From the NCBI GenBank assembly GCA_964508605.1, contig CAZDUI010000005.1, positions 49,254-113,253 on the forward strand: a stretch of DNA of 64,000 nucleotides. Reading direction: 5' to 3'. The notes under the pieces are model-generated. The model was given only the letters and a program-made list of their open reading frames with translations, ran no database searches and had not been told where the DNA came from. The position numbers were made by a program, and so were the translations under genes. Positions 810-25,119 of this stretch are shown piece after piece. The stretch is from an uncultured Weeksellaceae bacterium. Its GTDB lineage: Bacteria; Bacteroidota; Bacteroidia; Flavobacteriales_D; CAZDUI01. The stretch's first letter is position 1, and each line of letters begins with the position of its first letter.

Positions 810-2816
810 ATGAATACAATGTACATTATCGGTTTTTTAGTCCCTGTTATATTAGGTCTCTTTCTGGATATCCGGAAATGGCGCAAGATGCTAATACAAG
901 CGCTAAATCCTCAGGATTTTGATCTTAATGGAAAAATCAGTTATCAATTCACAGGGATTTACAGAGAATATAAAAAAAGCCAATTGTATTTAAATTATTA
1001 TAATACAACATTACCGCGTCAACCAAAAATTTCTCAGGAAAAGGCAATAAAAAGAAGAGCGGGAATACTTTCACTTTATAACTACTACCTGGCAGAATCG
1101 TGGACCCACGGACATACTAAAAATATTTACACAGCCGAACTGGGTAAATTTTCTAATAAAATATCTAAGGGTAATTATCGTAAAATTTATTACGGTATAT
1201 TACTTTTTTTAATAGGATTTACATTGTCCATGCAATTAATAGCGCAAAGTAATCTGCAAAAGGATAGTTATTATTTAAAAGCTGAATTATCATATTCCAA
1301 TAAAAAATATGATGAAGCAATTAAAAATTTTAAATTGGCAAAAGCTGTAAATGATAAAGATTCGTGTACGATACATTATAAAATAGCACTGTGTTTTAAT
1401 AAAATTCAAAAATGTGATTCAGCCCTGGTGTACTACAAAAGAGCATGGCAGCTTAATTCAGATAACGGAGGGGCTTCATCGCGCCAGAAATTCATTGATA
1501 AACTGGGGGAATGCGGTTATACTTTGAACGATTTAACCGGCAAAACTGAGGACATTAAAGATGTAGCAAGCGAAAACTACTACAAGTTAAAGATGAAAGA
1601 AGCCGATAATTATTACCGAAATGGAAATTATCATGAAGCTTTATCATTACTTGAAGAAATTGAAATATCAGGCACTCTGGATTACTCAGCCGTTTTCAAT
1701 TATAAAATGGCAATAACACTGGGTAAGCTGAATGACTGTTATGAAGCGAATATCTATTTTGAAAGAGCCCTATCTCTTGATCCTGACAAGGGAGGTGCTT
1801 CAACGCGCGAAAAATTCGATAAAGCCAGCGGAAAATGCGGATTTCAACAAAGCGGAACAGGCACAGACAACTCGCAATATGAAAGCGACGACGATTCTCC
1901 TGAATTCGGAATGGTCTTATTATCAATATTCTTAGGACTTATTGCACGCTTCATTTTATATTTTGTACTTGATTCACTGAAAAAAAGAAACGTAAGAGCA
2001 GTGGGTTCTAAATTTGCCGAACCTGTATACCGCGAAGCAGCTAACACAGAATTTTGGGCAGGATTATCCCGCAAAGGCTTCAGTGCCGATCAAATTGCTG
2101 ATATTAAAAACATGGTCAGGAATATTTCAAGACGACCCGAGATAAACCATACCACCAACGAAGGAATTGCCTTTGCCAAATTACTGAATCACTTTATACA
2201 AAACCCGGAGAATTATTTACCGGGTGATCCAAGATTCAATTATTTATGTTTACATGGATTTTACAATTATTTTAAGTCGGGATTTTACTGTTTTTTTACC
2301 TCAGAGATTATTGAAGACCGGAAAGCCATGGTGGTTAAAATTAAATACAATCATCACGAACCGGTTTTGGTGTGGGTATGTCCTTCAATTATGAAGCGAA
2401 TTAACAATAAAGCGCCATTAAAAGTAAGGGTACACATGGTAAACGAAGTATATACACATTGGAGCAACGACACCAAATATCACAATCCATGGTCGGATGT
2501 AGATAATCACGGTGTAATTTCAAAATCTGACTGGCAGGGTGAATTTAAAACCATTGACATTGAAAAATACCACGAACTTTTCACCAATTTTCCTGCAAGA
2601 TACCGAAGGCCGCATCCGGATTCCTTTGTTAATATGGAACTAGCCTATACAGAATTAAATACTAATACAATACATAAAACCGGAAAAAAATCGGATACAA
2701 ATAGCACTCTGCGGCAGGGTATTCAAAACGATTCCGATTCTGCAGCCGGAGATTTATTAATGGCTTCGGCCATAGGACACGAAATAAGTCATGACCGGAT
2801 TGCAGACATCTCCTGA
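810..2816 (+). CDS. Three-TM membrane protein with two TPR modules and an uncharacterised C-terminal domain
   Basis: Hydrophobic segments near aa 4-20, 127-145 and 366-388. Two TPR-like modules are homologous to the one in the upstream ORF. Confidence 0.75.
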   Translation: MNTMYIIGFLVPVILGLFLDIRKWRKMLIQALNPQDFDLNGKISYQFTGIYREYKKSQLYLNYYNTTLPRQPKISQEKAIKRRAGILSLYNYYLAESWTHGHTKNIYTAELGKFSNKISKGNYRKIYYGILLFLIGFTLSMQLIAQSNLQKDSYYLKAELSYSNKKYDEAIKNFKLAKAVNDKDSCTIHYKIALCFNKIQKCDSALVYYKRAWQLNSDNGGASSRQKFIDKLGECGYTLNDLTGKTEDIKDVASENYYKLKMKEADNYYRNGNYHEALSLLEEIEISGTLDYSAVFNYKMAITLGKLNDCYEANIYFERALSLDPDKGGASTREKFDKASGKCGFQQSGTGTDNSQYESDDDSPEFGMVLLSIFLGLIARFILYFVLDSLKKRNVRAVGSKFAEPVYREAANTEFWAGLSRKGFSADQIADIKNMVRNISRRPEINHTTNEGIAFAKLLNHFIQNPENYLPGDPRFNYLCLHGFYNYFKSGFYCFFTSEIIEDRKAMVVKIKYNHHEPVLVWVCPSIMKRINNKAPLKVRVHMVNEVYTHWSNDTKYHNPWSDVDNHGVISKSDWQGEFKTIDIEKYHELFTNFPARYRRPHPDSFVNMELAYTELNTNTIHKTGKKSDTNSTLRQGIQNDSDSAAGDLLMASAIGHEISHDRIADIS

Positions 2817-3963
2817 TAAGCTACGCATAATGTGTTATGCCATGAACGGTCTTGGGTTGGGGCATCTAACCCGATTGCTGGCCATTGCAATTCAGCTAAA
2901 AAGAATAAATCCCAATTGTGAAATATTATTTGTTACTACATCAGAGGCCGACAACGTTTTGAACCGATATGGTATCCCGTATGTCCATCTTCCCAGCAAA
3001 AAACTGGCAGGTACCGGAACCATCGGAGCAAAAAAACTGGCACGTATCTATAATGCGCTAATTAATCCGCTACTAGATAACTGGCAACCACACATATTTA
3101 TTACTGACACACAGGTTACCGGCTCATTAAACGACACTTTGCATTACCTAAGATACAGCAATTCCTATAAAGTATTTATACATCGCAGCCGAAAACCGGA
3201 ATCTTATACCCAGGCACAAATTCAAAGCCAGCGGTTTTACCATCTTATTATTGCACCTCATTACCCTCATCAATTTCTGGTTCCCGAGCCATTTGGATTC
3301 GAAGTTCCTGTTTTCTGGAGTGGACCCGTCTTATTAAAAAGCAAAGAGGAAACGCCTTCGCGGGATTCCATAAGACGAGAATTGAAGGTACAGCACCATG
3401 AAATTCTAATCTTTCTCTCGTTGGGAGGAGGAGGAGATGATTCTGACCCTGAAATTTTTGAAAAAGTACTTCCGGTTCTTAACCGATTTCAAAACATAAA
3501 AATATTGCTGGCAAGAGGGCTACTCTCTACATATTCTCTTACCGAGACTACTAACAACCTGATTGTAACCAGTATTTTTCCGGTATCGGATAGTTTTGCT
3601 GCGGTAGATATTGCCATTTCGGCTGCCGGATACAATACCTTTCATGAACTGATGCATCATGGGGTACCTACTATTTTCATTCCACGGGAAAGGGGCTGGG
3701 ATGACCAATATGAGCGCGCCAAACAAGCTGAAGTAAAAGATGCCTGTATGATTTGCCCTGCTGCCGACATTGAAATAAAACTAAACTTACTATTTGAAGA
3801 ACTGATGAATCCTCAGAAAAGAGATGCATTCCGTCTCAAAGCCTCAAGCTTAGTTCCTGAGAATAACGCAGAAAAGGTAGCCGCCGAAATTCTATCCTCA
3901 TACTCCCGCCGAATACAGGATTACAACTATAATAATGGAACAGAGACTTCTGAATTACCATAA
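2791..3963 (+). CDS. GT-B fold glycosyltransferase (MurG/GT28-like, COG4671-type)
   Basis: N-terminal YAMNGLGLGHLTR motif, central SLGGGG loop, C-terminal AISAAGYNTFHE and PTIFIP...DDQYERA nucleotide-sugar-binding signature. Confidence 0.85.
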   Translation: MTGLQTSPDKLRIMCYAMNGLGLGHLTRLLAIAIQLKRINPNCEILFVTTSEADNVLNRYGIPYVHLPSKKLAGTGTIGAKKLARIYNALINPLLDNWQPHIFITDTQVTGSLNDTLHYLRYSNSYKVFIHRSRKPESYTQAQIQSQRFYHLIIAPHYPHQFLVPEPFGFEVPVFWSGPVLLKSKEETPSRDSIRRELKVQHHEILIFLSLGGGGDDSDPEIFEKVLPVLNRFQNIKILLARGLLSTYSLTETTNNLIVTSIFPVSDSFAAVDIAISAAGYNTFHELMHHGVPTIFIPRERGWDDQYERAKQAEVKDACMICPAADIEIKLNLLFEELMNPQKRDAFRLKASSLVPENNAEKVAAEILSSYSRRIQDYNYNNGTETSELP

Positions 3964-4963
3964 TAATGAAGTTCCTGTACTGGGGCCGGAATCGATTGGA
4001 ATCGTTCCAATAAATGCATGCAATTTAAATTGTATTTCCTGTTGGACGTATTCGGCATTGAATCCTAAAAAACCTGATTTATCATGGCAAAGGCAAATTC
4101 TGCCTTTTGATATTATGAGCAGGACACTGAAAGAGCTACATGAATTAGGTACCAAAAGGATTATTTTAACCGGAGGAGGCGACCCACTGGTATATCCGCA
4201 TTTTAAAGAATCCATTGAACTTATTGCTTCATTAAAATTAAAAAGTACTTTAATATCCAACCTGACACTAGTAAAACACAAGCAACATTTTCTTGAACAC
4301 TTGCCCGACACAATTCTCGCAAATTTTTCGGCTGCCGATGCTGAAAGTTATGTAGCCTTTCATCCCAATCGGAATAACTCCGATTTTGATAAATTGCTCT
4401 CACTGCTGGAAAGTATCTCTGCAAGGAAATGTAATTTAAAACTGGTTTTTGTAGTATGTAGTTTGAATTATCATCTTATAGATAAGGTAGTTCATATTGC
4501 TGCAGCCCTGAAGGCTGCTATCCAGTTTAAGCTAATGAGCCCGTCGGAATTTAACACCGAGTTAATTTTGAGTCCACAACAAAAACTATATCTGTATTCA
4601 CAATGCGATTCTTTGCTATTACTTGCCCAACAGTTAGAGGTTTCAGTGAACATTACTACTTTAAAACATCAGTTATCCGGAGAACGATTGCATGATTTTC
4701 CTATTGATAAAACAGGTTGTTTTGCAGGCTATTATTACAGCAGAATAAAAGCCGACGGAAGTGTCTGGTTTTGTTGCAACCCTTATTCCGAGCTAAAAAG
4801 AGGTTCGTTACATCAGCAAACTTTCAGTGAAATATGGAATAGTAAACATTACCAGAATATTAGAACACAAATGTATAACAGACAATTTGTTCAGGGTTGC
4901 AATACATGCGGTAAATTTCAGTTGAATGTTTCAAAATCAGAGTTATATAAAAATCAGATATGA
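3935..4963 (+). CDS. Radical SAM enzyme with C-terminal SPASM/twitch domain
   Basis: CNLNCISC (CxxxCxxC) motif and TGGGDPL SAM-binding motif. C-terminal CFAGYYYSRIKADGSVWFCC...GSL...FSEIWNS...CNTC. Confidence 0.9.
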   Translation: MEQRLLNYHNNEVPVLGPESIGIVPINACNLNCISCWTYSALNPKKPDLSWQRQILPFDIMSRTLKELHELGTKRIILTGGGDPLVYPHFKESIELIASLKLKSTLISNLTLVKHKQHFLEHLPDTILANFSAADAESYVAFHPNRNNSDFDKLLSLLESISARKCNLKLVFVVCSLNYHLIDKVVHIAAALKAAIQFKLMSPSEFNTELILSPQQKLYLYSQCDSLLLLAQQLEVSVNITTLKHQLSGERLHDFPIDKTGCFAGYYYSRIKADGSVWFCCNPYSELKRGSLHQQTFSEIWNSKHYQNIRTQMYNRQFVQGCNTCGKFQLNVSKSELYKNQI

Positions 4964-5049
4964 TGACTCACTTTCTTTGCATACAATTTCATTCATAATT
5001 TTTTAATAATAAAATATAAAATTTAATGTGAATCATCATTTTTACTAAT

Positions 5050-5057
5050 TAATTTCG
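5050..5057 (+). promoter_or_regulatory. Bacteroidota -7 element variant (TAATTTCG)
   Basis: One mismatch to TAnnTTTG, 26 nt upstream of the ATG at 5084. Confidence 0.45.
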
Positions 5058-5083
5058 CATCATAAAATTTAATAATTATTCAA

Positions 5084-5401
5084 ATGAAAAAAATCGTAAT
5101 TGCATTAACACTGGCTATTAGCTCATCTTTTGTAATGGCTAACTTGAACGTTGACAACGAAACAAAAACTGAAGTAGCCACCGGCGAATCTTTTAAATTG
5201 ATTAACGATACCAAAGCAAAAATTTCAATTCATACAGGTACCGGTTTTGTTTCATTGGAAAAGGGAAGTTCTACTTCAATTGGATGTAATGTCGGTAAAG
5301 AAGTTCGTTTTGCAGACAGCGGTAAAAAAGGTGATGTTATTTTCGAAATTGAGGAAAGCATGTGTGGTAAAACCATTAAACTATCAGAATACATTAAGTA
5401 A
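5084..5401 (+). CDS. Small secreted hypothetical protein with two Cys
   Basis: Sec signal peptide MKKIVIALTLAISSSFVMA. Beta-rich mature part, flanked by its own promoter-like element and terminator. Confidence 0.8.
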   Translation: MKKIVIALTLAISSSFVMANLNVDNETKTEVATGESFKLINDTKAKISIHTGTGFVSLEKGSSTSIGCNVGKEVRFADSGKKGDVIFEIEESMCGKTIKLSEYIK

Positions 5402-5419
5402 TCTGCAAGATCTATAATG

Positions 5420-5453
5420 AAAAGGGAGTCTTTAGGGACTCCTTTTTTTTTCT
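5420..5453 (+). terminator. Rho-independent terminator
   Basis: AAAAGGGAGTC-tttagg-GACTCCTTTT hairpin followed by a T run, 19 nt after the stop at 5401. Confidence 0.8.
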
Positions 5454-5530: not shown

Positions 5531-8500
5531 TTGATCTGCATGAAAACATCATTCGTATTAATTCTATGGTTTCTATCGGTTTATACTATAACAGCGCAAA
5601 AAAATGAACCCCCATATTCAATACAAAGCTCACAGTTAAGTGGATTAAAATGGCGTTCTATTGGTCCGGCGGTTGCATCGGGCAGAATTGCTGATATTGC
5701 AGTGAACGATAAAAAGCCCGGAGAATATTTTCTGGCCATCGCATCGGGCGGAATTTTCAGAACCCGCAACTGGGGGATAACTTATGAGCCTGTTTTTGAC
5801 AATTATGGGTCGTACAGTACCGGGTGCATTACTATCAGTCCGCACAATCCTAATGAGGTATGGCTTGGAACCGGTGAAAACAATAACCAGCGCAGTGTAG
5901 CATACGGCGACGGAGTTTACAGGAGTTTGGATGGAGGAGATTCATGGAGTAATATGGGGCTTAAAGAAAGCGAACATATCCATAAAATAATCATTCACCC
6001 AGATTCTTCTGAGGTTATCTATGTTGCTTCCTGTGGACCATTATGGAAAGATGGCGGCGAGCGCGGGGTGTACAAATCCAAAGACGGAGGTAAAACCTGG
6101 AAGCGAATCCTTCATATTTCCGACAAAACAGGTGTTACAGATCTGATAATGGATCTTACCAATCCAAAAGTTATGTATGCTGCGGCGCATCAGCGCCGAC
6201 GCCACGTATGGACTTATATTGGCGGAGGCCCTGAATCAGGAATTTACAAAACCACAAACGCTGGAATTACTTGGGAAAAAGCAAATAATGGACTTCCTGA
6301 CAGCGACATAGGCAGAATTGGCCTGGCCATTTCTCCGGTAAATCCTGAAACGATTTACGCAATTGTAGAAGCAGCATTAGGAAAAGGTGGATTCTTTAAA
6401 ACCACCAATCGCGCTGCTTCTTGGCAAAAACAAAGCGACTTTAATACCAGTGGAAATTACTACCAAGAAATTATTTGCAGTCCCCACGACGAAAATCTTG
6501 TATTCGCTATGGATACCTGGTTACATCATACTGAAGATGGCGGTAAAACATTTAAAATGACCGGTGAAAAAAGTAAGCATGTGGACAATCACTGTATGTG
6601 GATAGACCCTGCCAATAAAAACCATTGGTTAGTAGGCACCGATGGCGGGCTTTACGAAACCTATGATGCTGCTGAGAACTGGCAATTTAAAACCAATTTG
6701 CCGGTTACACAGTTTTACAAAGTAACCGTTGACGATGCGAAACCATTCTACTATATATACGGAGGAACCCAGGATAACAATAGTTTAGGAGGACCCTCAC
6801 GCAGTATTAATAATGCCGGGGTGCATAATCAAGACTGGTTTATTACCAATGGCGGCGATGGTTTTGAATCGGCAGTTGAACCCGGAAATCCTGATATTGT
6901 ATACGCTCAGGCCCAATATGGCTGGCTGGTGCGTTACGATAAAAAGAGCGGTGAAACTTTACCTATCCAACCACAACCTTCCGGCGATCAGCCTGCCTTT
7001 AGATGGAATTGGGATGCACCTCTTGTAATTAGTCCACACAATCCGCAAAGACTCTATTTCGCCTCACAATTCGTATTTCAAAGTGACGATCGCGGTAGTA
7101 CCTGGAAAACCATTAGTGGAGATTTGTCGAGAGGTATTGACCGTAATAAACTACCAGTAATGGGAAGAGTGTGGAGTGTGGATGCAGTAATGAAAAATCA
7201 AAGTACTTCCATTTATGGCAATATTACCGCACTTGATGAATCACCTAAACTAGAGGGGCTTTTGTACGCCGGAACTGATGACGGCTTGATTCACGTAAGC
7301 GAAAATGGCGGTGAGAAATGGAACAGATTGAATAATTTTGCAGAAGTACCTGAAAACACTTATGTAAATCAAATTGTAGCTTCACAACACGATGCAAATA
7401 CTGTTTTCGCAGTATTCAACAATCATAAAAACGGGGATTTTAAACCATATATTGTTGTAAGCACCAATAAAGGAAAAACCTGGAGGTTAATTTCAGGCGA
7501 TCTTCCATTACGTGGCACGGTGTATTCCATTGCTCAGGACCACCAGAACAAGGATTTACTCTTTTGTGGTACAGAATTCGGTTTCTATTTTACCATTAAC
7601 GGCGGAAAAAACTGGGTGCAGCTTAAATCCGGTATGCCCACTATTGCGATTAAAGACATTGCCATTCAAAGGTCAGAAAATGATATCGTAATCGCATCTT
7701 TCGGTCGTGGTTTTTTTATTCTTGACGACTATTCTCCTTTGAGAAGCCTTTCACCGGAAATTCTGAACAAAGACGCCTACCTGTTCCCTGTAAAAACAGC
7801 TTTGGCTTATATGGAAAGTAGTCCTTTGGGGCTTACCGGCAAGGGACATCAGGGTGAGAGTTTTTATACAGCACCCAACCCTCCCGTTGGTGCAGTTTTT
7901 TCGTTTTACCTGAAAAATGATTTAAAATCTTCAACTCAAACAAGGCATGCAACTGAAAAAGAAGCTGCTGCTGCGGGAAAAGATACTCCATACCCTACCA
8001 TGGAACAACTTAGAAAGGAAGACAATGAAGAATCACCTTTTTTGCTTTTTATAATAAGTGATCAGAATGGCCGGGCTATTAAAAAAATTAAAGCCAATCC
8101 TTCCAAAGGATTACAAAGAATTGTTTGGAATTTTAAAACGCAAACCACAACACCCGTTAAAATAAGTGAGCCGGAACCCGGAAGATACGATTCACCAGAT
8201 GATGGATTTATGGTATTACCTGGGACATATCAGGTAGCGGTTTATAAAATTGAAAATGGAATTTCTTCTTTACTGGTTCCAAATCAAAAATTTGAAGTCC
8301 AATGGTTACAGCAACATACACTTCAAACAAATGACAAACAAGCTTTGGATAATTTTCTTGTAAAATTGAGTGAGTTAAGAAGAAGAGTTTCCGGAGCGGG
8401 AAGTATGTATTACGAAATCAAACAAAGAATTTCACACATCAATGCAGCCATATATAAATACCCTACCCTACCACTGGAACTTAAAAGTAAAATAACGGAA

Positions 8501-8806
8501 ATTACCGATTTACTGAATACTTTCAGCACTGTACTATATGGCGACAGAACACTCAGTAAACGTGAATTTGAAACCCGCGACGGTTTATCCTCCAGAATTG
8601 AGCTCATAGTCTGGACTCAGTTCTCAGGTACATCAGCGCCTACTTCAACAAGCCTGAAGGCATACGAAGAAGTGAATAAAGCATTTGACGAAACCCTGAG
8701 TAAATTACAAAAAGCATTAACCATGACCGAAGACCTTGAAAAAAGACTTGACAGTTACGGAGTTCCTTATACTCCTCAACGTGGAAAAACCTGGAAAAAC
8801 GATTAG
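5531..8806 (+). CDS. BNR/Asp-box repeat beta-propeller protein (VPS10/sortilin-like, often annotated glycosyl hydrolase)
   Basis: Signal peptide, WRSIGP...GRI start, many S/T-x-D-G-G-x-T-W Asp-boxes (SLDGGDSW, SKDGGKTW, TEDGGKTF, SDDRGSTW, TINGGKNW) and a C-terminal coiled coil. Confidence 0.88.
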   Translation: MICMKTSFVLILWFLSVYTITAQKNEPPYSIQSSQLSGLKWRSIGPAVASGRIADIAVNDKKPGEYFLAIASGGIFRTRNWGITYEPVFDNYGSYSTGCITISPHNPNEVWLGTGENNNQRSVAYGDGVYRSLDGGDSWSNMGLKESEHIHKIIIHPDSSEVIYVASCGPLWKDGGERGVYKSKDGGKTWKRILHISDKTGVTDLIMDLTNPKVMYAAAHQRRRHVWTYIGGGPESGIYKTTNAGITWEKANNGLPDSDIGRIGLAISPVNPETIYAIVEAALGKGGFFKTTNRAASWQKQSDFNTSGNYYQEIICSPHDENLVFAMDTWLHHTEDGGKTFKMTGEKSKHVDNHCMWIDPANKNHWLVGTDGGLYETYDAAENWQFKTNLPVTQFYKVTVDDAKPFYYIYGGTQDNNSLGGPSRSINNAGVHNQDWFITNGGDGFESAVEPGNPDIVYAQAQYGWLVRYDKKSGETLPIQPQPSGDQPAFRWNWDAPLVISPHNPQRLYFASQFVFQSDDRGSTWKTISGDLSRGIDRNKLPVMGRVWSVDAVMKNQSTSIYGNITALDESPKLEGLLYAGTDDGLIHVSENGGEKWNRLNNFAEVPENTYVNQIVASQHDANTVFAVFNNHKNGDFKPYIVVSTNKGKTWRLISGDLPLRGTVYSIAQDHQNKDLLFCGTEFGFYFTINGGKNWVQLKSGMPTIAIKDIAIQRSENDIVIASFGRGFFILDDYSPLRSLSPEILNKDAYLFPVKTALAYMESSPLGLTGKGHQGESFYTAPNPPVGAVFSFYLKNDLKSSTQTRHATEKEAAAAGKDTPYPTMEQLRKEDNEESPFLLFIISDQNGRAIKKIKANPSKGLQRIVWNFKTQTTTPVKISEPEPGRYDSPDDGFMVLPGTYQVAVYKIENGISSLLVPNQKFEVQWLQQHTLQTNDKQALDNFLVKLSELRRRVSGAGSMYYEIKQRISHINAAIYKYPTLPLELKSKITEITDLLNTFSTVLYGDRTLSKREFETRDGLSSRIELIVWTQFSGTSAPTSTSLKAYEEVNKAFDETLSKLQKALTMTEDLEKRLDSYGVPYTPQRGKTWKND

Positions 8807-8887: not shown

Positions 8888-8895
8888 TACTTTTG
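8888..8895 (+). promoter_or_regulatory. Bacteroidota -7 promoter element (TACTTTTG) of the putative EPS operon
   Basis: Exact TAnnTTTG match 9 nt upstream of the ATG at 8905. The ORF caller's TTG start at 8893 lies inside it. Confidence 0.65.
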
Positions 8896-8904
8896 CAACC
8901 CCAA

Positions 8905-11004
8905 ATGAGAATTGCAAAAGCGATATTCCAGTTTTTCATTATGCTTACCGCATCCTATTCTGCTTTTTCTCAGGCAGACAGTACCATTCAGCAATTAATA
9001 ACCCAATGGCGTCATTTGGTATCACAGGTACCCACCAGTCCCGTTGTTGTAGACTCTAACGAATTGAATACACTTTTGAGATATGTTCCCGGACAATTTA
9101 CCCATGCAGGCAAATACGAACGATACTACAACACTGCACAAATGGAGTATTTAAAAAGGGATATTGGTTTAAATATACAGGCTGGTTATCTTGAAAATTT
9201 CTCGCCTGCTTTGGAAGATGTTGACGACAACGTTGTATACTACCGTCGTGCTCAGGCCGGTGTGCAGTGGAATATTCTAAACAACGGATTTGTTGAATCG
9301 CGTTCCAGAATTCGCGAACTGGAATATGAAAACCAACTTTTACACTTAAAAGAAAAAACTGAAAATTCCAAGCATCAGTATTTTGTTAAATGGGAAGGAA
9401 CTATGGCCGCTTTCAACCATAGCAAACTGGCATTGCTGGACCGAAGAAAAAAAATTCTGGACGCACTTTCTTCTTCGGGAATGCAATTACACCATTTAAA
9501 TTTACTGAGCAGGGAAGATTATTTAAAGACCGAAGCAAGGGTAGCCGAACTGCAGGCACTCTATACCGTTTACGGGGGCTTTGACAAGTATACCCTTTCT
9601 GACGGTTTTCTTGCAACAATAGATGCCGGAAAAATAGTACCAAAAGCTATTGATTACGCTGCACTGTTAGCCAATATCCATGCTTCAGCAGACAGCACAG
9701 CACATTACATCGCACTTATTTTTGATGAGAAGAACCATTGGACCCGAACTGTGAGTGCGTCGGTATTTACCCGCTATAACCTGTACGACCTTACCGGTGC
9801 TCCTCCCTCCATGAGAAGTTTCGGTTCGGCAGGTGTTAACATCTCGGTTCCCATTCGGTTTCGTTCTAAACAACAAAAAATATTAAAAAATGCATGGCTG
9901 GAAATGGAGCAGCAAAAGAACAACGAAATGCAAAAAGGGCTACACAAACAACTGGCAACCGAGCTTTATGAATACGATTACAGGTTACGACAATATGTAG
10001 ATTTAATTAGTAAAAGGAAAGTTTTTATTGAACTTTTAAGAAAGGATATAGCCCGTGCTTCTGTTCCCGGTTTCAACTTTAACCCATATTCTGCACTGCT
10101 TTTACTTGACGACATAACGCGTATAGATATTGAAATGCTTGACATTACTCAAAACATTACGCTCCGGCTTATTAGAATTAATGAGTATTACAAAGGAAAT
10201 TCGCCGTCCGATTATCTGGTAGACATTCCGGAACAACCTGAAAATTCTGCTACGTCTCCAATAAATGCAGTTTATATCTGGAGTAAAACTCTGGAAAAAT
10301 ATGGTGCCGATTATGTGGTGCAATACCTTACGTTTACCCGTTTTAACACCATCGTGCTAGCTGCCTATCAAAATGACCCACAGGCAGAAATCAAGAAAAA
10401 ATTATTAGCCCTAACCGATTCACTATCAATTGACGGACATTTAATGCTGGGCGACAATAAATTAATAAATCTTTCAAATAGCGACTTTGAAAAAATACTT
10501 ACGGCAATTCACAACGATTATAAAAGTGTTAATATAAAAGGGATACATCTTGACATTGAACCTCAAACACTTCCTGATTATGAAACACGCAAAACTGAAT
10601 TACTGGGTAAGCTGGTAACGTTAATACAAACAGCGAACAACTACTGTTCTCAACAAAATTTAAGTTTAACGGTTTCCATACCGCTGCATTACCCGCAGGA
10701 TATAATTTCAGCAATAATGAAAGACTGTCATCAGGTGTATTTTATGGCCTACGAAAATGTAAAACAAGAATACATTCTCCGTAAAATTCAACCCTGGATG
10801 AATGATCCCGTCACGGCAAATAAAATTGTGATCGCATCGCGAACCGATGACTTTTTAAATCCTGCTACACTTTACGAACATCAGAATAAAATACTAAATT
10901 CAGCACCGGGAATCGCCGGTGCAGCTCTGCATGATTTGGGCAGATTAATAATGATGGAGGAGAATCTGATTCGGGTACTTCCCGAAAAGGGAGGTAATCC
11001 TTGA
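8905..11004 (+). CDS. TolC/OEP-like outer-membrane protein fused to a C-terminal GH18-like TIM-barrel domain
   Basis: Signal peptide (…ASYSAFSQ). Two OEP-like beta-hairpin plus coiled-coil repeats (GLNIQAGY…AQAGVQWNIL…LLSREDYLKTEARV; SASVFTRY…GVNISVPI). From about 10261: AVYIWS…GIHLDIEP…VYFMAYE. Start moved from TTG 8893 to ATG 8905. Confidence 0.7.
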   Translation: MRIAKAIFQFFIMLTASYSAFSQADSTIQQLITQWRHLVSQVPTSPVVVDSNELNTLLRYVPGQFTHAGKYERYYNTAQMEYLKRDIGLNIQAGYLENFSPALEDVDDNVVYYRRAQAGVQWNILNNGFVESRSRIRELEYENQLLHLKEKTENSKHQYFVKWEGTMAAFNHSKLALLDRRKKILDALSSSGMQLHHLNLLSREDYLKTEARVAELQALYTVYGGFDKYTLSDGFLATIDAGKIVPKAIDYAALLANIHASADSTAHYIALIFDEKNHWTRTVSASVFTRYNLYDLTGAPPSMRSFGSAGVNISVPIRFRSKQQKILKNAWLEMEQQKNNEMQKGLHKQLATELYEYDYRLRQYVDLISKRKVFIELLRKDIARASVPGFNFNPYSALLLLDDITRIDIEMLDITQNITLRLIRINEYYKGNSPSDYLVDIPEQPENSATSPINAVYIWSKTLEKYGADYVVQYLTFTRFNTIVLAAYQNDPQAEIKKKLLALTDSLSIDGHLMLGDNKLINLSNSDFEKILTAIHNDYKSVNIKGIHLDIEPQTLPDYETRKTELLGKLVTLIQTANNYCSQQNLSLTVSIPLHYPQDIISAIMKDCHQVYFMAYENVKQEYILRKIQPWMNDPVTANKIVIASRTDDFLNPATLYEHQNKILNSAPGIAGAALHDLGRLIMMEENLIRVLPEKGGNP

Positions 11005-12095
11005 AGAGTGTAAATTTCAAAAGAAAACCTTCTGTATTAAGATACAGTGAGGAAGCGAAAAAAAATGCACGCAAACCCATCAACTGGGATAGGATTATCT
11101 ATTTCATCTTTTTTGGTGCAGGCTTTCTATTTTTAGTAAACTACCTGTGGAATTACTCTGTATATATTACTGCATACGGTGAAGTATTATTTGACAAGTT
11201 GGATATCAGGTACGAGAACGACTGCACCCTTGAAAATATTTATGTAAGTGAAGGCGATTCCATTGAAATTGGAGATACCTTATTTAGTTTTCACGACAGA
11301 GGCGACCGCATTGACCTGAACGGCAACGAAACCTCTGTAAGTATTACACAGTCTTCAGGAAAAACACCCGAATGGCTGGAGCGTGAAATACTGATTACTG
11401 AAAAAAACATTCGCCTTGCGCAGATACAGGCTGCATCGGCCCGCAACCGCGCTGCCTTGCTGGAACGCGAATTTCAAAATCAGTTAAACCAGGTAGTGTT
11501 AGAAGTATCAACCCGGGGAAGATTAAATCAGATTGAAGAAAGTATTGCCCTGGAGCAGGCCGATGCCATGAAATACGATAGCGAAGCTGGCTATTATGCT
11601 GCATATCTGGCAAAACTAAAAAACATGATGGCTACAAACAATAACACTTCTACACAAATTGCCAATCCTGTAGACGCGCCAAATGGAGGTGATGCCAGTT
11701 ACGAGCCGGATATCAGATATTTTATATCTCCGGTAAAGGGCACCATTACCAATATTGAAAAAAGACCTTACGAAGTGGCATTGCGCACAGAAATTATTCT
11801 CTCGGTTCATGAACCAGAAAATATTTATATTAAAGGTTATTTTGATCAGGATGATTTATCTGAGCTCACCATAGGAGACGAAGTGGATGTATTATTTCCG
11901 GATGGTACTTCAAGTACCGGTGTTATTAAACAATTCTACTTTGCAACCTTCAGGTTGCCCGACGAATTTCAAAAGAAATACGAACCCACCACCCGAACCT
12001 TAAGTGCAGATATTTATCCGGTAGATGAAACAGAACTTAAAAAATGGCGGGCATTTTATAAAATGGGCGTAGAAATCAGAAAATCGAAATACTGA
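11001..12095 (+). CDS. HlyD-family periplasmic adaptor (membrane fusion protein)
   Basis: N-terminal TM, lipoyl half-motif (ENIYVSEGDSIEIGDTLF), coiled-coil hairpin, second half-motif ISPVKGTITNI and a beta-barrel (DLSELTIGDEVDV). Confidence 0.85.
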   Translation: MKSVNFKRKPSVLRYSEEAKKNARKPINWDRIIYFIFFGAGFLFLVNYLWNYSVYITAYGEVLFDKLDIRYENDCTLENIYVSEGDSIEIGDTLFSFHDRGDRIDLNGNETSVSITQSSGKTPEWLEREILITEKNIRLAQIQAASARNRAALLEREFQNQLNQVVLEVSTRGRLNQIEESIALEQADAMKYDSEAGYYAAYLAKLKNMMATNNNTSTQIANPVDAPNGGDASYEPDIRYFISPVKGTITNIEKRPYEVALRTEIILSVHEPENIYIKGYFDQDDLSELTIGDEVDVLFPDGTSSTGVIKQFYFATFRLPDEFQKKYEPTTRTLSADIYPVDETELKKWRAFYKMGVEIRKSKY

Positions 12096-13525
12096 TGCAA
12101 ACACTGGAACTTGAAGACGAAGGATTGGTAGTTCGGTATGGAGACCTCAGATTCCGAATTATAAACGAAACAATGGGTTTCAATGGCGACCATCTGGCCG
12201 TTTATGACGCTCTTTTAATTGAATCTTCAGACACCTACTTTGTTGGCAGCATCATTACCATGTTGCGCAGCAGCATGAATACCCAGATATATTTAAAACC
12301 TGTGTTTCTTTTGAAAGGGACTGCCAATCGGGATCCGTTTATTAATGCCCTGGTAGACGGGATGCTTTTTGCAGCCGAACAGGTAAAAATTATCGCTCCA
12401 CAGGTACAACGCATTATTTCCCGCATTAACGACCTGAATTTTAGCACAGCTATAAGCTATGAAGCACAGGTAATTAGCAAGGTTGCTCACTATATGTATA
12501 CCCGTGAACTGACCCGCATAGACCCTATACCCTACAATTATTCGGGCATTGGCTATACTTTTCCTCCCATATCGGTAAATTATAAATTTCGTGAAGAAGC
12601 TCAGGTTTTAAATGTAATTGCCGTTGCTGAAGAAGAGGGCATTTTTAACACTACATTTCACGATCGCATATATCTGTGCACCAATTGTCATACCGGCTTC
12701 ATGAGTTTCAGGGAAGTATGTCCTAAATGTGCTTCCTCTAACAGCGAAAGTCAGGACATTATACATCATTTTAGGTGTGGTTATGTTGCGCCTCTATCAG
12801 ATTACAGCAATGCAATTGACGATCAGTTGAACTGTCCCAAATGCAATAAACAATTAAGGCATATTGGAGTTGATTACGACAAACCATCGGTTTTACACTC
12901 TTGCCGAAATTGTGGCCATAAATATCAGGATTTCGTGGTAAAGGCTAAGTGCGTTACTTGCTCTTTTGACAACGAAGTAGATCAGCTTGTGTATCATGAG
13001 GTAAAATCACTTGAAATTACGAAAAAGGGCGAGTTGGTTGCTACCCATGGGTACGTTAGTACAAGTAAAGACCTTGAAGAAATTATAGGCACCGTAAAGA
13101 TGGACGTTTTCCGGACGATGCTGCGTTATGAAATTGAAAGGCTTAAACAAACTGAAGGTCATAGTAATATAGCAGGTGTATTCATAAGTAATGCCGGTGA
13201 ATTTTACAGTAAAATAGGAAGCAGTATGGAACAGGCTTTACTTAAAGACCTGGTTGAAGTGGTTAGGGGAAACATCAGAACTTCAGACATGATTACTTTT
13301 AAGGACTCTTCTACTCTACTGCTAAGTATGAACGATATCCCTCAAAAGGTTGGTGAAAACATAATGGAAGAAATTGTACAGTTAATATTAAAACTATTAA
13401 ATACCAATTTCCCAAACCTGAATATTCAAATAAAATACGCAGTAAAACAGGTGCATGCTAAATTAAATCACGAATTACAGATTCAGCAATTACTGCAACA
13501 GGTATATACCGATGTTCAGTCTTGA
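12095..13525 (+). CDS. REC-like / multi-Zn-ribbon (TackOD1-like) / degenerate GGDEF-like protein
   Basis: YDALLIE…MLRS…LKPVFLL resembles a REC fragment. CTNC, CPKC, HFRC, CPKC, CRNC and CVTC motifs at 12677-12961. C-terminal MLRYEIER…NIRTSDMIT resembles a GGDEF fold with RxxD retained and GGDEF lost. Confidence 0.65.
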   Translation: MQTLELEDEGLVVRYGDLRFRIINETMGFNGDHLAVYDALLIESSDTYFVGSIITMLRSSMNTQIYLKPVFLLKGTANRDPFINALVDGMLFAAEQVKIIAPQVQRIISRINDLNFSTAISYEAQVISKVAHYMYTRELTRIDPIPYNYSGIGYTFPPISVNYKFREEAQVLNVIAVAEEEGIFNTTFHDRIYLCTNCHTGFMSFREVCPKCASSNSESQDIIHHFRCGYVAPLSDYSNAIDDQLNCPKCNKQLRHIGVDYDKPSVLHSCRNCGHKYQDFVVKAKCVTCSFDNEVDQLVYHEVKSLEITKKGELVATHGYVSTSKDLEEIIGTVKMDVFRTMLRYEIERLKQTEGHSNIAGVFISNAGEFYSKIGSSMEQALLKDLVEVVRGNIRTSDMITFKDSSTLLLSMNDIPQKVGENIMEEIVQLILKLLNTNFPNLNIQIKYAVKQVHAKLNHELQIQQLLQQVYTDVQS

Positions 13526-14819
13526 AGATTTTTTAAATTACGTTCAAACTGTTGGAGGTGATAAACTTCTAAGAATATTCTGGTTTTTTGTGATCTTTGA
13601 ATTCTTCAGGTATGTATTTATTGAATTTATTACCCTTTGCTGGTGGCAATTCAAACAATGGACAGGAAAGGACAAAGTGCAAAAAGCCCGGGATGAATTA
13701 ATGTTTGAATACCCGCTGGTTTCCATTATTATTCCTGGAAAAAATGAAGGTAAACACCTTTTTAAATTAGTTCAGTCACTGGAAGAACAAACGTACAGAA
13801 ATTATGAAATTATTGTAATTGATGACGGATCAGACGATGACACCCCAACTATAGGTAGAACGCTGGAAAAAAAGGGAATTATTACCCGCTTCCTTCGCAA
13901 CGAAATTCGCGGGGGTAAGGCATCTGCAGCCAATTTGGGCTTGCGCTTTGCAAAAGGCAAATTTGTTGTTCACCTGGATGCCGACTGCTCATACGACCGG
14001 GATGCTATTGAAAAAATACTGATACCCTTCTACTTAGACGACCAGGTGGGAGCTGTGGGTGGAAACGTGATGGTAAGAAATTATCGGGACAGCCTGGCTA
14101 CTGCACTGCAGGCCATAGAGTATACCGATACAATTTCCACAGGCCGCATCGTATCCAGCCAACTTGGCATATATCGTATTATTTCAGGTGCCTTTGGGGC
14201 TTTTAGAATGGACGTTTTACAAAAAATAAAAGGGTGGGACATTGGTCCCGGCCTGGATGGTGATATTACCGTAAAGGTGCGCAAACTGGGTTATAAAATA
14301 AAATTTGCCGACCAGGCCGTTTGTTTAACAAGTGTCCCTGACACTTTTAAAAAACTTTCTAAACAACGCCTAAGATGGGATAAAAGTATTGTAAGATTCA
14401 GGTTGCGCAAGCACCGCGACGTATTTATGCCGAATCATTCTTTCCGACTGGTAAACTTTATTGGATTTGTTGAAAACGTAACCTACAACATTTTACTGAA
14501 CATAAAATGGTATGTGTACATTATTGATATGATTGTGAATTTCTTCAGCCTTCTTCAGTTCATTGTTCTTGCCAATTTCTTTCTTTACACGGTAAACAAC
14601 TATGTAAAACTGATGGTATTCTCATTATTCAGAAAACGTCAGCACATTCCAATTTGGTACATGCTGTTGTACATTCCCCTGATGGTCTTTTACTTCGGTT
14701 TGTTCCTGCGTATTATCAGAACAAAAGCCTACTTACAGGAATTCTTATTCAAGGCTTCTTATAAGGATCCATGGAATCCGGCAAAAACTTCAAGGCAGGC
14801 AAAAGAAATTGGTATCTGA
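13512..14819 (+). CDS. Processive GT2 polysaccharide synthase (PgaC/IcaA/cellulose-synthase-like)
   Basis: VSIIIPGKNE, IDDGSDD, GGKASAAN, LDADC (DxD), SGAFGAFR and QRLRW (QxxRW). One N-terminal and several C-terminal TM helices. Confidence 0.9.
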   Translation: MFSLEDFLNYVQTVGGDKLLRIFWFFVIFEFFRYVFIEFITLCWWQFKQWTGKDKVQKARDELMFEYPLVSIIIPGKNEGKHLFKLVQSLEEQTYRNYEIIVIDDGSDDDTPTIGRTLEKKGIITRFLRNEIRGGKASAANLGLRFAKGKFVVHLDADCSYDRDAIEKILIPFYLDDQVGAVGGNVMVRNYRDSLATALQAIEYTDTISTGRIVSSQLGIYRIISGAFGAFRMDVLQKIKGWDIGPGLDGDITVKVRKLGYKIKFADQAVCLTSVPDTFKKLSKQRLRWDKSIVRFRLRKHRDVFMPNHSFRLVNFIGFVENVTYNILLNIKWYVYIIDMIVNFFSLLQFIVLANFFLYTVNNYVKLMVFSLFRKRQHIPIWYMLLYIPLMVFYFGLFLRIIRTKAYLQEFLFKASYKDPWNPAKTSRQAKEIGI

Positions 14820-16503: not shown

Positions 16504-17457
16504 TTATTCATGATCTTTAGTGGCCTTGTCAAAGGCTTCAATTATTTGTCGAACCAGCTTATGCCTTATTACATCCGATTCGTTCAAACGAATGATTGTA
16601 ATTCCGTCAACCTCCTTTAAAAGGGTCAATGCCTCTTTCAAACCTGATGGTTGTTTCAGGGGTAAATCTACCTGAGATGGGTCGCCGGTAATAATAAACC
16701 GCGCCGATTGTCCCATACGTGTAAGAAACATTTTGATTTGAGCACGGGTTGCATTCTGCGCTTCATCCAGAATTACAAATGCATTATCAAGTGTCCGGCC
16801 ACGCATAAAAGCCATGGGTGCAATCTGAATGACACCCTGTTCTATGTATTCATTCAATCGGTCGTGGGGTATCATGTCCCTGAGGGCATCGTATAATGGC
16901 TGCATATAAGGGTCCAGTTTCTCTTTGAGGTCTCCGGGAAGAAACCCAAGATTCTCTCCGGCCTCTACTGCTGGCCTGGTAAGTATAATTCTACGTACTT
17001 CCTTATTTTTTAATGCACGTACTGCTAAAGCAACGGCAGTATATGTTTTTCCGGTACCTGCCGGACCAATGGCAAACAGCATATCGCACTGCTGCATGGC
17101 TGCAACCATCCGGCGCTGATTGGCGGTACGTGCTTTTACCATTAAACCATTATTACCGTAAACCAGAATTTCGTCGGCTGAAGCCGGGTGAATTACTTCT
17201 GCTCCGGGACCCGCCAACTGAACTATATCGGTATCCGTTAACACATTATATCTTTCATAATGTTGCAACAGCCGGTTGAAAAGAATTTCAAATTTCTCAA
17301 TCTCGGCAGGTTCACCCATAACCTTTAAAGTATTACCCCTTGGTATTAATTTGAGTTTAGGAAATGCCTCTCGTAAAGCACGCATACGGCTATCATTGGG
17401 CCCAAATAAATCCAAAGGGCTTATTCCGTTAATTGATAAATCTTTTTCCTGCTGCAA
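16504..17457 (-). CDS. phoH: PhoH-like ATPase/helicase
   Basis: GPAGTGKT Walker [23 protein letters not shown] and FLTRMG motifs. Confidence 0.95.
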
Positions 17458-18736: not shown

Positions 18737-19135
18737 ATGGAAACCTTGAAAATGGAAGGTAGTTTTAAATCTCCGTCGTTGCTTTTCGATGCAAATACTG
18801 GAGTTTTTGAAATCAAAGGCAGGTCTTTACCGGAAAATGCTGTGGACGTATACGAGCCCGTCTTTAAATGGCTTGATGAGTACAGCAGGAACCCAAAAAG
18901 CAGCACAGTAATTAATGTGAGCCTTGAGTACTTTAATACCAGCAGCAGCAAACTTATATTTGAACTTTTTAGAAAATTTGAAGGCCTTGCCGCTTCAGGC
19001 CATCAGGTTAAGGTAAATTGGTATTATGAACTTGACGATATTGATCTGAAAGAAGAAGGCGAAACTTTCAGTCAGTTATTAAAAGTGCCTGTTGAATTGA
19101 TTGGAGTGGATGAATTCGATTTTACTTTCCTGTAA
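18737..19135 (+). CDS. SiaC family (DUF1987) protein
   Basis: SPSLLFDANTGVFEIKGRSLPENA, LEYFNTSSSK and VNWYYELDDIDLKEEGE motifs. Confidence 0.88.
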   Translation: METLKMEGSFKSPSLLFDANTGVFEIKGRSLPENAVDVYEPVFKWLDEYSRNPKSSTVINVSLEYFNTSSSKLIFELFRKFEGLAASGHQVKVNWYYELDDIDLKEEGETFSQLLKVPVELIGVDEFDFTFL

Positions 19136-19140
19136 AAACA

Positions 19141-20358
19141 CTATTCCCATTGCTTTAAATCTAAGTTTCTTAGAGTAAACTTATATGTTGAATCTTTTCT
19201 TTCACAATTCCCTTCCATTTGTTCAGTAAGTGCTTCCATCAAATTCATACCAAAAGTACTTCTTTTCTCCAGGTGCTTCCATTCACCGGTATCCGAGTAT
19301 AACAGTATAAAATAACCATTTACCCCGGGCTTCAATTCTATTGAAATCTGCCCCTCGTTTTCAGGCTTGAAAGCATGTTTAAATGTATTAGAAATCAATT
19401 CATTAAGCAAAAGACCCAAAGGCACAATGGTGTTTAAACCCAAACCGGATATATCACTCTTAATCTTTTTTGTTATCTGGAACCCGGACTGGTAAGAATC
19501 CATAATATAATTCACCAGTTCTTCAATGTAGGTATCGGTATCCACCTGGGTAAAATTGTCTTGCTGATATAGTTTCTGATGAATGAGAGCCATACTCATT
19601 ATCCGGTTATTAGCCTCTTCAAATTTTTCAGACACCTCAGGCTCTTGCTGATTCCCCTGTAATCTTAATAAACTTGTAATAATTTGCAGGTTGTTCTTAA
19701 CCCTGTGATGTACCTCCTTTAATAAAAGAACATTCTCGCGATTTTTAGCTTGAATGATGCTGTTTTGTTTCGATAATTCGGTATAGGCTTCCTGCAATTG
19801 GCGGTTAGTATATTCCAGAAAATGTACATATTGCCGGGCCAAATAGATTAGAACCGTAAACGCAAATCCAATCTCTACCAATTCACCAATCATTTCTGTA
19901 TTTGTGCGGGGTTGCATGGTAAGAATGTGATCGTTTAACGTGAATAGAAAGAACCCCGTAACCAGAATGATGTGTAATACTGTAAAAACAAGCCCAACCG
20001 TACGTCCAATACCAATAAATGCCAAAAGAATGGTATTTATCATCCAAATGAAATCAACATAATGCGTAAGATTCAACACGGTATTCATAGCATAATGAGA
20101 AAGACCGGTTCCTGCCAGGACATAAATCCAGAACATCGGGCGGTAATTCTTCTTTATCCTAAGGTACAAGAGACAAAAAATTCCCACAACAACTACCAAT
20201 CCTGACGGCAACGCTGCTTCAAATCCCGTATACGAATACATGCCCGTTACTATTAGAAAAACTATAGTAAACAACAATGATACACGCCATGCCAATAAAT
20301 AACGTTCCTTATCGTAATAATTTGTATATGGATGGTTTGCAGGTGTAAAAAGACTCAT
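19141..20358 (-). CDS. Membrane sensor histidine kinase (HisKA_2 type)
   Basis: About five TM helices, EVHHRVKNNLQ H-box, LLLNELISNTFKHAF N-box, and YSDTGE/FGMNL G-boxes. Confidence 0.9.
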   Translation of the reverse strand: MSLFTPANHPYTNYYDKERYLLAWRVSLLFTIVFLIVTGMYSYTGFEAALPSGLVVVVGIFCLLYLRIKKNYRPMFWIYVLAGTGLSHYAMNTVLNLTHYVDFIWMINTILLAFIGIGRTVGLVFTVLHIILVTGFFLFTLNDHILTMQPRTNTEMIGELVEIGFAFTVLIYLARQYVHFLEYTNRQLQEAYTELSKQNSIIQAKNRENVLLLKEVHHRVKNNLQIITSLLRLQGNQQEPEVSEKFEEANNRIMSMALIHQKLYQQDNFTQVDTDTYIEELVNYIMDSYQSGFQITKKIKSDISGLGLNTIVPLGLLLNELISNTFKHAFKPENEGQISIELKPGVNGYFILLYSDTGEWKHLEKRSTFGMNLMEALTEQMEGNCERKDSTYKFTLRNLDLKQWE

Positions 20359-22506: not shown

Positions 22507-22584
22507 TTATACCCTTCAGAATATAATCAGCACATGGCCGTTGATAACGGTTGTGCAAAAGATGATGCATCAAACCAAATAATG

Positions 22585-22592
22585 TATTTTTG
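22585..22592 (+). promoter_or_regulatory. -7 promoter element for gldF (TATTTTTG)
   Basis: Exact TAnnTTTG match only 4 nt before the ATG at 22597. Confidence 0.6.
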
Positions 22593-22596
22593 CGAT

Positions 22597-23328: not shown

Positions 23329-23329
23329 T

Positions 23330-25105: not shown

Positions 25106-25119
25106 GCAGATATCAAGAC

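Follow-up and report, generated by a model that had tools for sequence, protein, structure and literature searches.

A TackOD1–degenerate GGDEF protein as a predicted regulatory subunit of a four-gene polysaccharide synthase cassette in Bacteroidota

What does a soluble protein with a cysteine-rich block and the remnant of a GGDEF domain do when its gene overlaps that of a polysaccharide synthase? The question is raised by a 476-residue open reading frame (ORF) with an ATG start, found on the forward strand at 12095–13525 in a 64,000-nucleotide stretch (the window) of contig CAZDUI010000005.1 (assembly GCA_964508605.1) from an uncultured Weeksellaceae bacterium. An earlier note on this DNA, made from the letters alone, had described the encoded product, here called the target protein, as a soluble allosteric partner of the neighboring family 2 glycosyltransferase (GT2) that integrates a nucleotide signal with a metal or redox signal. 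As judged from sequence, the best-supported reading is that the target protein is cytoplasmic and soluble, and regulatory rather than catalytic. We consider it very probable (roughly 85%) that it serves, on the cytoplasmic side, as the regulatory subunit of a tripartite polysaccharide machine of the synthase-dependent type. That cyclic di-GMP (c-di-GMP), bound at a retained I-site, would be the input in the window's own clade is a separate claim; it is the likeliest of the inputs considered, at about even odds.

Family-wide conservation was counted over 132 representatives clustered at 50% identity, close-clade conservation over 68 homologues that are 45–55% identical to the target protein, and synteny over 92 fetched loci, the flanks of which total 1.43 Mb of DNA.

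Domain architecture of the target protein

The target protein and its parts are as follows.

12095–13525 (+): target protein, with an N-terminal alpha/beta domain, TackOD1 and a degenerate GGDEF domain; soluble; AlphaFold2 (AF2) model.
12095–12460 (+): N-terminal alpha/beta domain, aa 1–122; four beta-alpha units; invariant R58, L67, P69, D88 and G89.
12461–13012 (+): TackOD1 domain, aa 123–306; Pfam PF18551, E 3.8e-48, 164 bits.
12677–12961 (+): three predicted zinc-ribbon sites, CxxC/CxxC, HHxxC/CxxC and CxxC/CxxC; from sequence and ligand conservation.
12857–12889 (+): R-H-I-G-V-D-Y-D-K-P-S loop, aa 255–265; apart from the Cys residues, the best-conserved motif in the family.
13073–13522 (+): degenerate GGDEF domain, aa 327–476; from Foldseek, profiles and PF00990 matches of homologues.
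13277–13288 (+): RTSD, the RxxD I-site motif, R395–D398; by alignment onto solved GGDEF domains.
13304–13318 (+): DSSTL where GG(D/E)EF would sit, aa 404–408; dead active site, by alignment.

No transmembrane (TM) segment is predicted in the target protein, and its AF2 model, built on the 68 close homologues, has a mean predicted local distance difference test score (pLDDT) of 85.6. Over most of residues 336–472 the pLDDT lies between 85 and 93, and all of the top 50 Foldseek matches of the C-terminal domain in the PDB are GGDEF domains (E 3e-7 to 2e-4), with PleD, WspR, SiaD, DosC, SadC and GcbC among them. Against isolated GGDEF domains, 140–160 residues are superimposed with TM-scores (template modeling scores) of 0.64–0.75 and root-mean-square deviations of 2.5–4 Å. 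A profile of the C-terminal 150 residues also has GGDEF chains as its best PDB matches (E 0.006–0.3), and these alignments place the R-S-S-D of the family over RKSD, RQSD and RSSD, and its 'dsst' over GGEEF/GGDEF. RTSD, followed five residues on by DSSTL as the earlier note had read from the letters, is thereby placed in the exact I-site register of a dead GGDEF domain. The Pfam GGDEF family (PF00990) is matched by 48 of the 68 close homologues at E ≤ 0.1 (best E 9.4e-7), and a hidden Markov model (HMM) built from three solved PDB GGDEF sequences matched 58 loci in the 1.43 Mb, all of them members of this family. The target protein itself yields neither a Pfam GGDEF match at E ≤ 0.1 nor a PDB sequence match for GGDEF. 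We therefore base the assignment on homologue profiles and structure prediction, and these agree on a degenerate GGDEF fold, as had been proposed.

The catalytic apparatus of this fold is gone. In alignments to 6zxm, 3ign and DosC, other residues stand in place of the Asp that binds metal and the Asn/Asp that bind guanine, and a GG[DE]EF-like motif occurs in none of the 132 representatives. Since the GG(D/E)EF motif and the metal and guanine ligands are all replaced, the target protein is, by its sequence, not a cyclase.

The central part of the protein is a nearly complete TackOD1 domain, the match covering positions 6–186 of the 188-position Pfam model at a score well above the cut-off of 32 bits; the resemblance that had been noticed by eye thus holds. 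All six predicted ligand pairs (C195-T-N-C198, C209-P-K-C212, H225-F-R-C228, C247-P-K-C250, C270-R-N-C273 and C286-V-T-C289) are present between aa 195 and 289 exactly as they had been listed, a pattern that chance would not produce. TackOD1 was defined by five CxxC motifs and one HxxC motif in the archaeal two-component census of Galperin et al. (2018), which mentions its occurrence in 'some bacteria' and assigns it no function; this census was the only paper on TackOD1 found in our literature search. All six motifs are found in the target protein. Thirteen Cys/His ligands are invariant in 129–132 of the 132 representatives. Four residues of the RHIGVDYDKPS loop, G258, D260, K263 and P264, are kept in 90 of 90 species genomes, and D260 in every one of the 132 representatives. 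The loop is modeled with lower local pLDDT (65–74). The thirteen zinc ligands and the loop are invariant or nearly so everywhere in the family, and the loop is a candidate effector or partner surface. Foldseek found no structural analogue of TackOD1 with the model of aa 1–310, the best match being Parkin at E 0.24.

The N-terminal domain is modeled as a hairpin followed by four beta-alpha units (aa 1–112) and packs with TackOD1 as one unit, with a predicted template modeling score of 0.79 for aa 1–310 versus 0.61 for the full-length protein. The Foldseek search with this two-domain model returned nothing below E 0.24; around ten weak matches to receiver (REC) or pseudo-receiver domains lie at E 0.5–2.3, among them PrrA, PleD, GlnR, TadZ, the CikA pseudo-receiver, CsgD, FleQ and the degenerate receiver (REC*) of BcsE. 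Pfam REC (PF00072) has no match in the target protein and is absent from the 25 most-matched families of the 68 homologues. A sister subfamily of equal length and with the same TackOD1-degenerate GGDEF body carries at this position a canonical Pfam REC domain (E 1e-20 to 1e-24), in which D10, D55 and K101 are invariant. An HMM built from these sister REC domains does not match the N-terminal domain at E ≤ 10, and hhalign against them gives a probability of 1.2%. What the domain does keep is a 'DAxII-D/E' strand with an acidic residue at position 43, the putative acceptor position, which is E43 in the target protein and D in many relatives; the receiver Thr and Lys positions are not kept, by manual comparison. 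The earlier description of a 'REC-like' fragment is therefore right about the alpha/beta fold and about the position held by a true REC in sister proteins, and finds no significant REC match by Pfam, HMM, hhalign or Foldseek. Because of the positional equivalence and the conserved strand, 'REC-like' is a reasonable evolutionary guess, not a demonstrated homology, and the domain is at best a pseudo-receiver.

A conserved cassette with a probable role in polymer synthesis and export

The target gene lies third in a run of four genes on the forward strand. Its three partners are listed here.

8893–11004 (+): outer-membrane component, 703 aa; signal peptide; weak TolC/OEP-like N-terminal half.
11001–12095 (+): HlyD-like periplasmic adaptor (membrane fusion protein, MFP), 364 aa; one TM helix, aa 31–50; cytoplasmic tail of ~30 aa.
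13512–14819 (+): membrane-embedded processive GT2 synthase, 435 aa, of the PgaC/IcaA, NodC, chitin-synthase and hyaluronan synthase (HAS) type; from Pfam, NCBIfam and PDB matches.

The synthase matches Pfam Glycos_transf_2 (E 4e-29) and Chitin_synth_2 (E 6e-12) as well as NCBIfam TIGR03937 PgaC_IcaA (E 3.9e-48, below the cut-off); its PDB matches include HAS1, TM region included, and chondroitin synthase, and its TM segments span aa 19–44 and 334–403. The adaptor matches NCBIfam type_I_hlyD (E 3e-7) and Pfam HlyD_3 (E 0.0039) and the outer-membrane component Pfam OEP (E 9.8e-4), each below its cut-off, and the topology and gene order of both proteins fit HlyD/TolC roles. The C-terminal part of the outer-membrane component (aa ~440–703) is a conserved domain of ~260 aa that matches nothing in Pfam or the PDB; by analogy with other synthase-dependent systems it could be a polymer-modifying domain or a hydrolase.

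The junctions are tight. The genes of the outer-membrane component and the adaptor overlap by 4 nt, the TGA of the adaptor gene and the ATG of the target gene share 1 nt, and the target gene overlaps the synthase gene by 14 nt, an arrangement by which the target gene is translationally coupled inside the cassette. The order outer-membrane component–adaptor–regulator–GT2 is retained across the fetched loci, with the outer-membrane component present in 86, the adaptor in 88 and the GT2 in 89 of the 92; most partner-less loci reach a contig end, and two (L054 and L062) do not. The GT2 orthologues in these loci share 48–73% identity, and the genes flanking the cassette otherwise vary from locus to locus. 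The same cassette surrounds a homologue in a metagenome-assembled genome (MAG) of Pseudomonadota, an RxxD-less homologue and the true-REC homologues. That the product is soluble, as had been proposed, is supported by the lack of TM segments, and its tight genetic link to the GT2 by the 14-nt overlap and by synteny in about 90 loci. The setting in exopolysaccharide (EPS) operons that is shared by degenerate-GGDEF receptors is also found here, the target gene overlapping both the GT2 and the adaptor gene. We found nothing on this cassette in the literature.

Some loci depart from the basic layout. The true-REC loci contain two further ORFs without a Pfam match, one of ~110 aa between adaptor and regulator and one of ~390 aa after the GT2 (L010 4291–4635 and 7490–8680; L011 7654–7983 and 10899–12053). 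In one homologue (P0209, 669 aa) the UDP-binding domain of UDP-glucose/GDP-mannose dehydrogenases (PF03720, E 1.1e-9) is fused N-terminally before the regulator body, which hints at a link to nucleotide-sugar supply.

Relatives of the target protein are widespread, and many sludge and aquatic Bacteroidota have the machine that it most likely switches on. When each species was represented by a single genome, at least 575 genomes were found to carry a relative, and the best 80 of these are all Bacteroidota; cultured carriers include Crocinitomix catalasitica, C. algicola, Brumimicrobium oceani and B. glaciale. Searching 1.84 billion representative proteins with a profile yielded 686 clusters at E ≤ 1e-30. 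The window sequence itself was detected in bioreactor, wastewater and sludge metagenomes. All four cassette genes are covered, at low depth, by metatranscriptome contigs at least 99% identical to them, one of which crosses the adaptor/regulator junction; the cassette genes are transcribed in situ.

Candidate inputs, rival explanations and neighboring genes

In the window's Crocinitomicaceae-type clade the I-site motif reads R-[ST]-[SA]-D. R395 and D398 are each kept in at least 90% of the 68 close homologues, where the mean column identity is 60%, and nearly all Crocinitomix, Fluviicola and Paracrocinitomix genomes have RxxD. The expectation that RxxD would be conserved among homologues therefore holds inside this clade and fails beyond it. 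RxxD is present in 63 of the 132 representatives, and among 90 distinct species-level sequences R395 is found in 47, being K in 13 and T in 18; D398 (86/90) and R391 (82/90) are retained more widely than R395.

Several observations weigh against c-di-GMP as the input. More than half of the family has lost RxxD and still has the cassette: other Bacteroidota clades read K-P-x-D (at about 42% identity) or T-P-A-D (at 36–39% identity), and within the RxxD clade two species of Brumimicrobium read PTSS, all with the cassette kept. In the target protein, N422 occupies a position where some relatives have R, and a manual alignment to PleD places E426 where the secondary arginine of the I-site (PleD R390) would be. 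The failure of direct searches to match the target protein itself to GGDEF belongs here too. No c-di-GMP cyclase, phosphodiesterase, PilZ domain or riboswitch was found in the 64-kb window, the absence of a cyclase that the earlier note had reported being confirmed for all ORFs of at least 150 aa. The 8-kb flanks of the 92 loci contain no intact GGDEF cyclase. Because RxxD is replaced in other clades while the cassette persists, c-di-GMP sensing cannot, on this sequence comparison, be the core function of the family.

As for the wider nucleotide background, P. gingivalis is one Bacteroidota species reported to have a cyclase. At one locus (L008), a Pseudomonadota MAG with an RxxD-plus homologue, a REC-HD-GYP-type protein (Response_reg, HD_5) is encoded 7 kb downstream (16536–17443) and PEP-CTERM proteins flank the cassette; an HD-GYP-type regulator was seen near the cassette at this locus only. 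In one Flavobacteriales genome (L005) a DAC (c-di-AMP synthase) gene, probably the housekeeping CdaA, lies ~7 kb upstream of the cassette (2548–3246). The common cyclic dinucleotide in Bacteroidota is c-di-AMP.

The mechanism we propose combines these elements. The machine would consist of the inner-membrane processive GT2 synthase, the HlyD-like periplasmic adaptor and the TolC-like outer-membrane protein. Its regulator may descend from a REC-TackOD1-GGDEF response regulator in which both signaling ends have decayed. Binding of c-di-GMP to the RxxD of the GGDEF remnant would change the conformation or oligomeric state of the regulator, upon which TackOD1, with its RHIGVDYDKPS loop, would engage the GT2 or the cytoplasmic tail of the adaptor. 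This engagement would license polymerization and export, a post-translational gating of the kind performed by PelD, PssE, YdaK and BcsE. Three elements of this scheme are inferences: that the nucleotide binds, which partner is contacted, and that the effect is activation. TackOD1 would be the output surface contacting the synthase or the adaptor tail, because no other part of the protein is kept in every input variant.

The most substantial rival keeps the subunit and drops the ligand: the target protein would be a regulatory or assembly subunit that does not sense c-di-GMP, its RxxD being a vestige of the cyclase ancestor. Either the receiver-like domain would take in the signal, whether as phosphorylation, from a docked kinase or from some other partner, or the protein would be no more than an obligatory scaffold that acts through TackOD1. 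The RxxD-less majority of the family, in which cassette, zinc ligands and RHIGVDYDKPS loop are all kept, speaks for it, and so do the sister proteins, where a canonical REC fills the same position and all ten representatives are without RxxD. The acidic residue that ends the central strand points the same way, since position 43 is Asp in nearly all RxxD-minus Bacteroidota clades and D, E, N or Q in the RxxD-plus clade. This pattern hints, at the level of alignments, that lineages use alternative inputs, and with few independent events on the tree it is a lead, not a statistic. A histidine kinase is also encoded near the cassette in a minority of loci; the copy in the window is

19141–20358 (−): HisKA_2/HWE histidine kinase; Pfam HisKA_2, E 7.9e-27.

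In 15 of the 92 loci a homologue of this kinase is encoded a few kb or less from the cassette (among them L001 12724–13929 and L006 12736–13923; L015–L018, L032, L036 and L039), and in nine of the 15 it is directly convergent on the GT2; the homologues are ~31% identical between loci, and the kinase is a possible, unproven associate of the cassette. The target protein, however, has E43 and none of the receiver Thr/Lys positions, REC homology is undetectable (hhalign 1.2%; Foldseek E > 0.2), and in the window's clade it is R395 and D398 that are visibly constrained while position 43 is relaxed. We regard this rival as possible, at clearly less than even odds. A related view, held slightly more doubtfully, is that the machine is switched on by TackOD1 as the conserved effector, instead of by the GGDEF remnant. 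The family would then be a modular input adaptor in which lineages have swapped the signal: phosphorylation of a true REC in one clade, c-di-GMP at the I-site in the Crocinitomicaceae-type clade and a conserved-Asp pseudo-receiver in others.

The other alternatives give TackOD1 or the GGDEF remnant a different role. Metal or redox sensing, with TackOD1 acting as a Zn-thiolate switch or holding an Fe-S cluster, could draw on the thirteen invariant Cys/His residues and on a weak likeness to the C-terminal zinc-ribbon region of NrdD (NCBIfam E 7e-5; PDB E about 1). The paired CxxC knuckles, spaced 10–20 aa apart, and the homologue matches of the Cys block to families such as DZR, Zn_ribbon_6 and HypA are instead typical of structural ribbons, AF2 models the block as ordered beta-ribbons with pLDDT above 90 over most of it, no redox-partner or metal-homeostasis gene is conserved near the cassette, and Galperin et al. 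(2018) proposed that the metal of TackOD1 only stabilizes the structure. Taken together, the Cys pattern, the Pfam zinc-ribbon matches and the confident beta-ribbon model indicate that the predicted zinc sites are structural; the metal or redox half of the earlier proposal is not borne out, and we consider such sensing improbable. Marginally less probable still is a nucleic-acid-binding regulator of the operon, transcriptional or translational, acting through the zinc ribbons. Ribbons of this type often bind nucleic acids, and PriA has a similarly arranged Cys insert (Galperin et al., 2018), but no helix-turn-helix (HTH) or other DNA-binding domain was detected in the target protein, and the archaeal REC-winged HTH-TackOD1 proteins have a separate DNA-binding domain. 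A stoichiometric subunit also fits better than a transcription factor because of the two-sided translational coupling and the strict co-linearity across phyla. Finally, a few homologues are labeled 'diguanylate cyclase' or 'GGDEF domain-containing protein' in databases. An active cyclase is refuted at the sequence level by DSSTL in place of GG(D/E)EF, by the replaced ligands and by the motif count of 0/132, and its probability is negligible.

Further genes and signals around the cassette are the following.

2791–5448: a GT28-like glycosyltransferase, a radical SAM/SPASM (twitch-domain) enzyme and then a 105-aa ORF without family match; may be a peptide- or cofactor-maturation unit.
5419–5448: strong terminator-like hairpin.
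5531–8806 (+): 1091-aa BNR/Sortilin-Vps10 repeat protein, ending 86 nt before the cassette; matches an F510_1955-type glycosylhydrolase model at E 2.2e-40, under the cut-off.
18737–19135 (+): 132-aa ORF, SiaC family regulatory phosphoprotein (PF09345/DUF1987, E 1.8e-38), convergent with the HisKA_2 kinase gene.
22534–26208 (+): ABC-2 permease, ABC_transp_aux (GldG-like) and DUF4340; resembles a gliding-motility-type ABC transporter and is unrelated to the target gene.

In Pseudomonas, the cyclase SiaD is activated when SiaC binds to the stalk and GGDEF domain of SiaD. The SiaC-family gene was considered as a cassette partner and rejected, no homologue being found within 8 kb of the cassette in 92 other loci. 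The BNR/Sortilin gene was likewise rejected as a member of the conserved unit, a homologue being present in only one of the 92 loci. Sigma-70 promoters and terminators were matched no more often than in shuffled sequence, and for Bacteroidota such a scan carries no information.

Relation to known systems and significance

The concept of a dead GGDEF domain whose I-site gates an EPS synthase is already known, and PelD and PssE, which had been named as precedents, are valid ones, as are YdaK and BcsE. PelD is a c-di-GMP receptor in which the RxxD of a degenerate GGDEF domain serves to switch on an EPS machine of the synthase-dependent kind. In PssE of Listeria, RxxD precedes the degenerate motif by five residues, c-di-GMP is bound with a Kd of 0.79 µM and the protein is essential for EPS, and in YdaK of Bacillus the R202A and D205A mutations abolish EPS. 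In BcsE, a soluble protein with degenerate REC and GGDEF domains, RxxD is again the site that binds c-di-GMP, and the system acted on is a GT2 secretion system.

Among these, BcsE of E. coli cellulose secretion (GIL, that is REC*-GGDEF*) resembles the target protein in being soluble, in having a degenerate GGDEF domain with RxxD, in being encoded within a GT2 secretion operon and in placing a receiver-position domain ahead of the GGDEF remnant; its REC* is among the weak Foldseek matches of the N-terminal half. It differs in lacking a TackOD1 or zinc module, in carrying an additional NTPase-like domain at its N-terminus and in having BcsQ, BcsR and BcsF as partners; its synthase BcsA has a PilZ domain of its own, and no sequence similarity between BcsE and the target protein was detected. 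PssE and YdaK share the spacing of exactly five residues between RxxD and the dead GGDEF motif, as well as a gene position beside a PgaC-like GT2, and both proteins and their I-sites are needed for EPS, but they have N-terminal TM anchors and no REC-like or zinc domains, and as Gram-positive proteins they have no adaptor or outer-membrane partner. PelD of Pseudomonas aeruginosa has a TM-GAF-GGDEF* architecture with a more eroded GGDEF core, and in the Pel system the glycosyltransferase PelF is a soluble GT4 and export runs through PelB/PelC instead of a pair of MFP and outer-membrane factor.

The closest machines by composition are BgsBA-TolC (rhizobial mixed-linkage glucan) and XcsAB-TolC (cyanobacterial cellulose), both proposed GT2-MFP-TolC machines under c-di-GMP control. 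They share with the window's cassette a GT2 synthase, a HlyD-like adaptor and a TolC-type channel, the latter two recognized here by below-cut-off matches. In those systems c-di-GMP binds the synthase itself (the C-terminus of BgsA, the PilZ domain of XcsA), there is no separate receptor and TolC is encoded elsewhere, whereas the window's system has a dedicated outer-membrane component with the extra ~260-aa domain, and its putative receptor is a separate soluble gene product. The archaeal REC-TackOD1 response regulators carry the same TackOD1 downstream of the receiver position; a GGDEF-like domain is missing from them, and their genes are found in type IV pilus loci and not beside a GT2. The architecture of pseudo-receiver, TackOD1 and degenerate GGDEF domain, the four-gene cassette and its wide distribution in Bacteroidota are undescribed in the literature searched.

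Control of EPS synthases by degenerate-GGDEF receptors with an I-site is well documented in Proteobacteria and Firmicutes, not in Bacteroidota, a phylum in which second-messenger control of matrix production is almost unstudied. Relatives of the window's locus occur in bioreactors, wastewater and sludge, where floc-forming polymers matter in practice. The family, whose members have a true REC, an I-site or neither, forms a natural series for studying the rewiring of one effector. If the proposal is true, TackOD1 would gain in bacteria its first, testable function, which would extend to the pilus loci of archaea.

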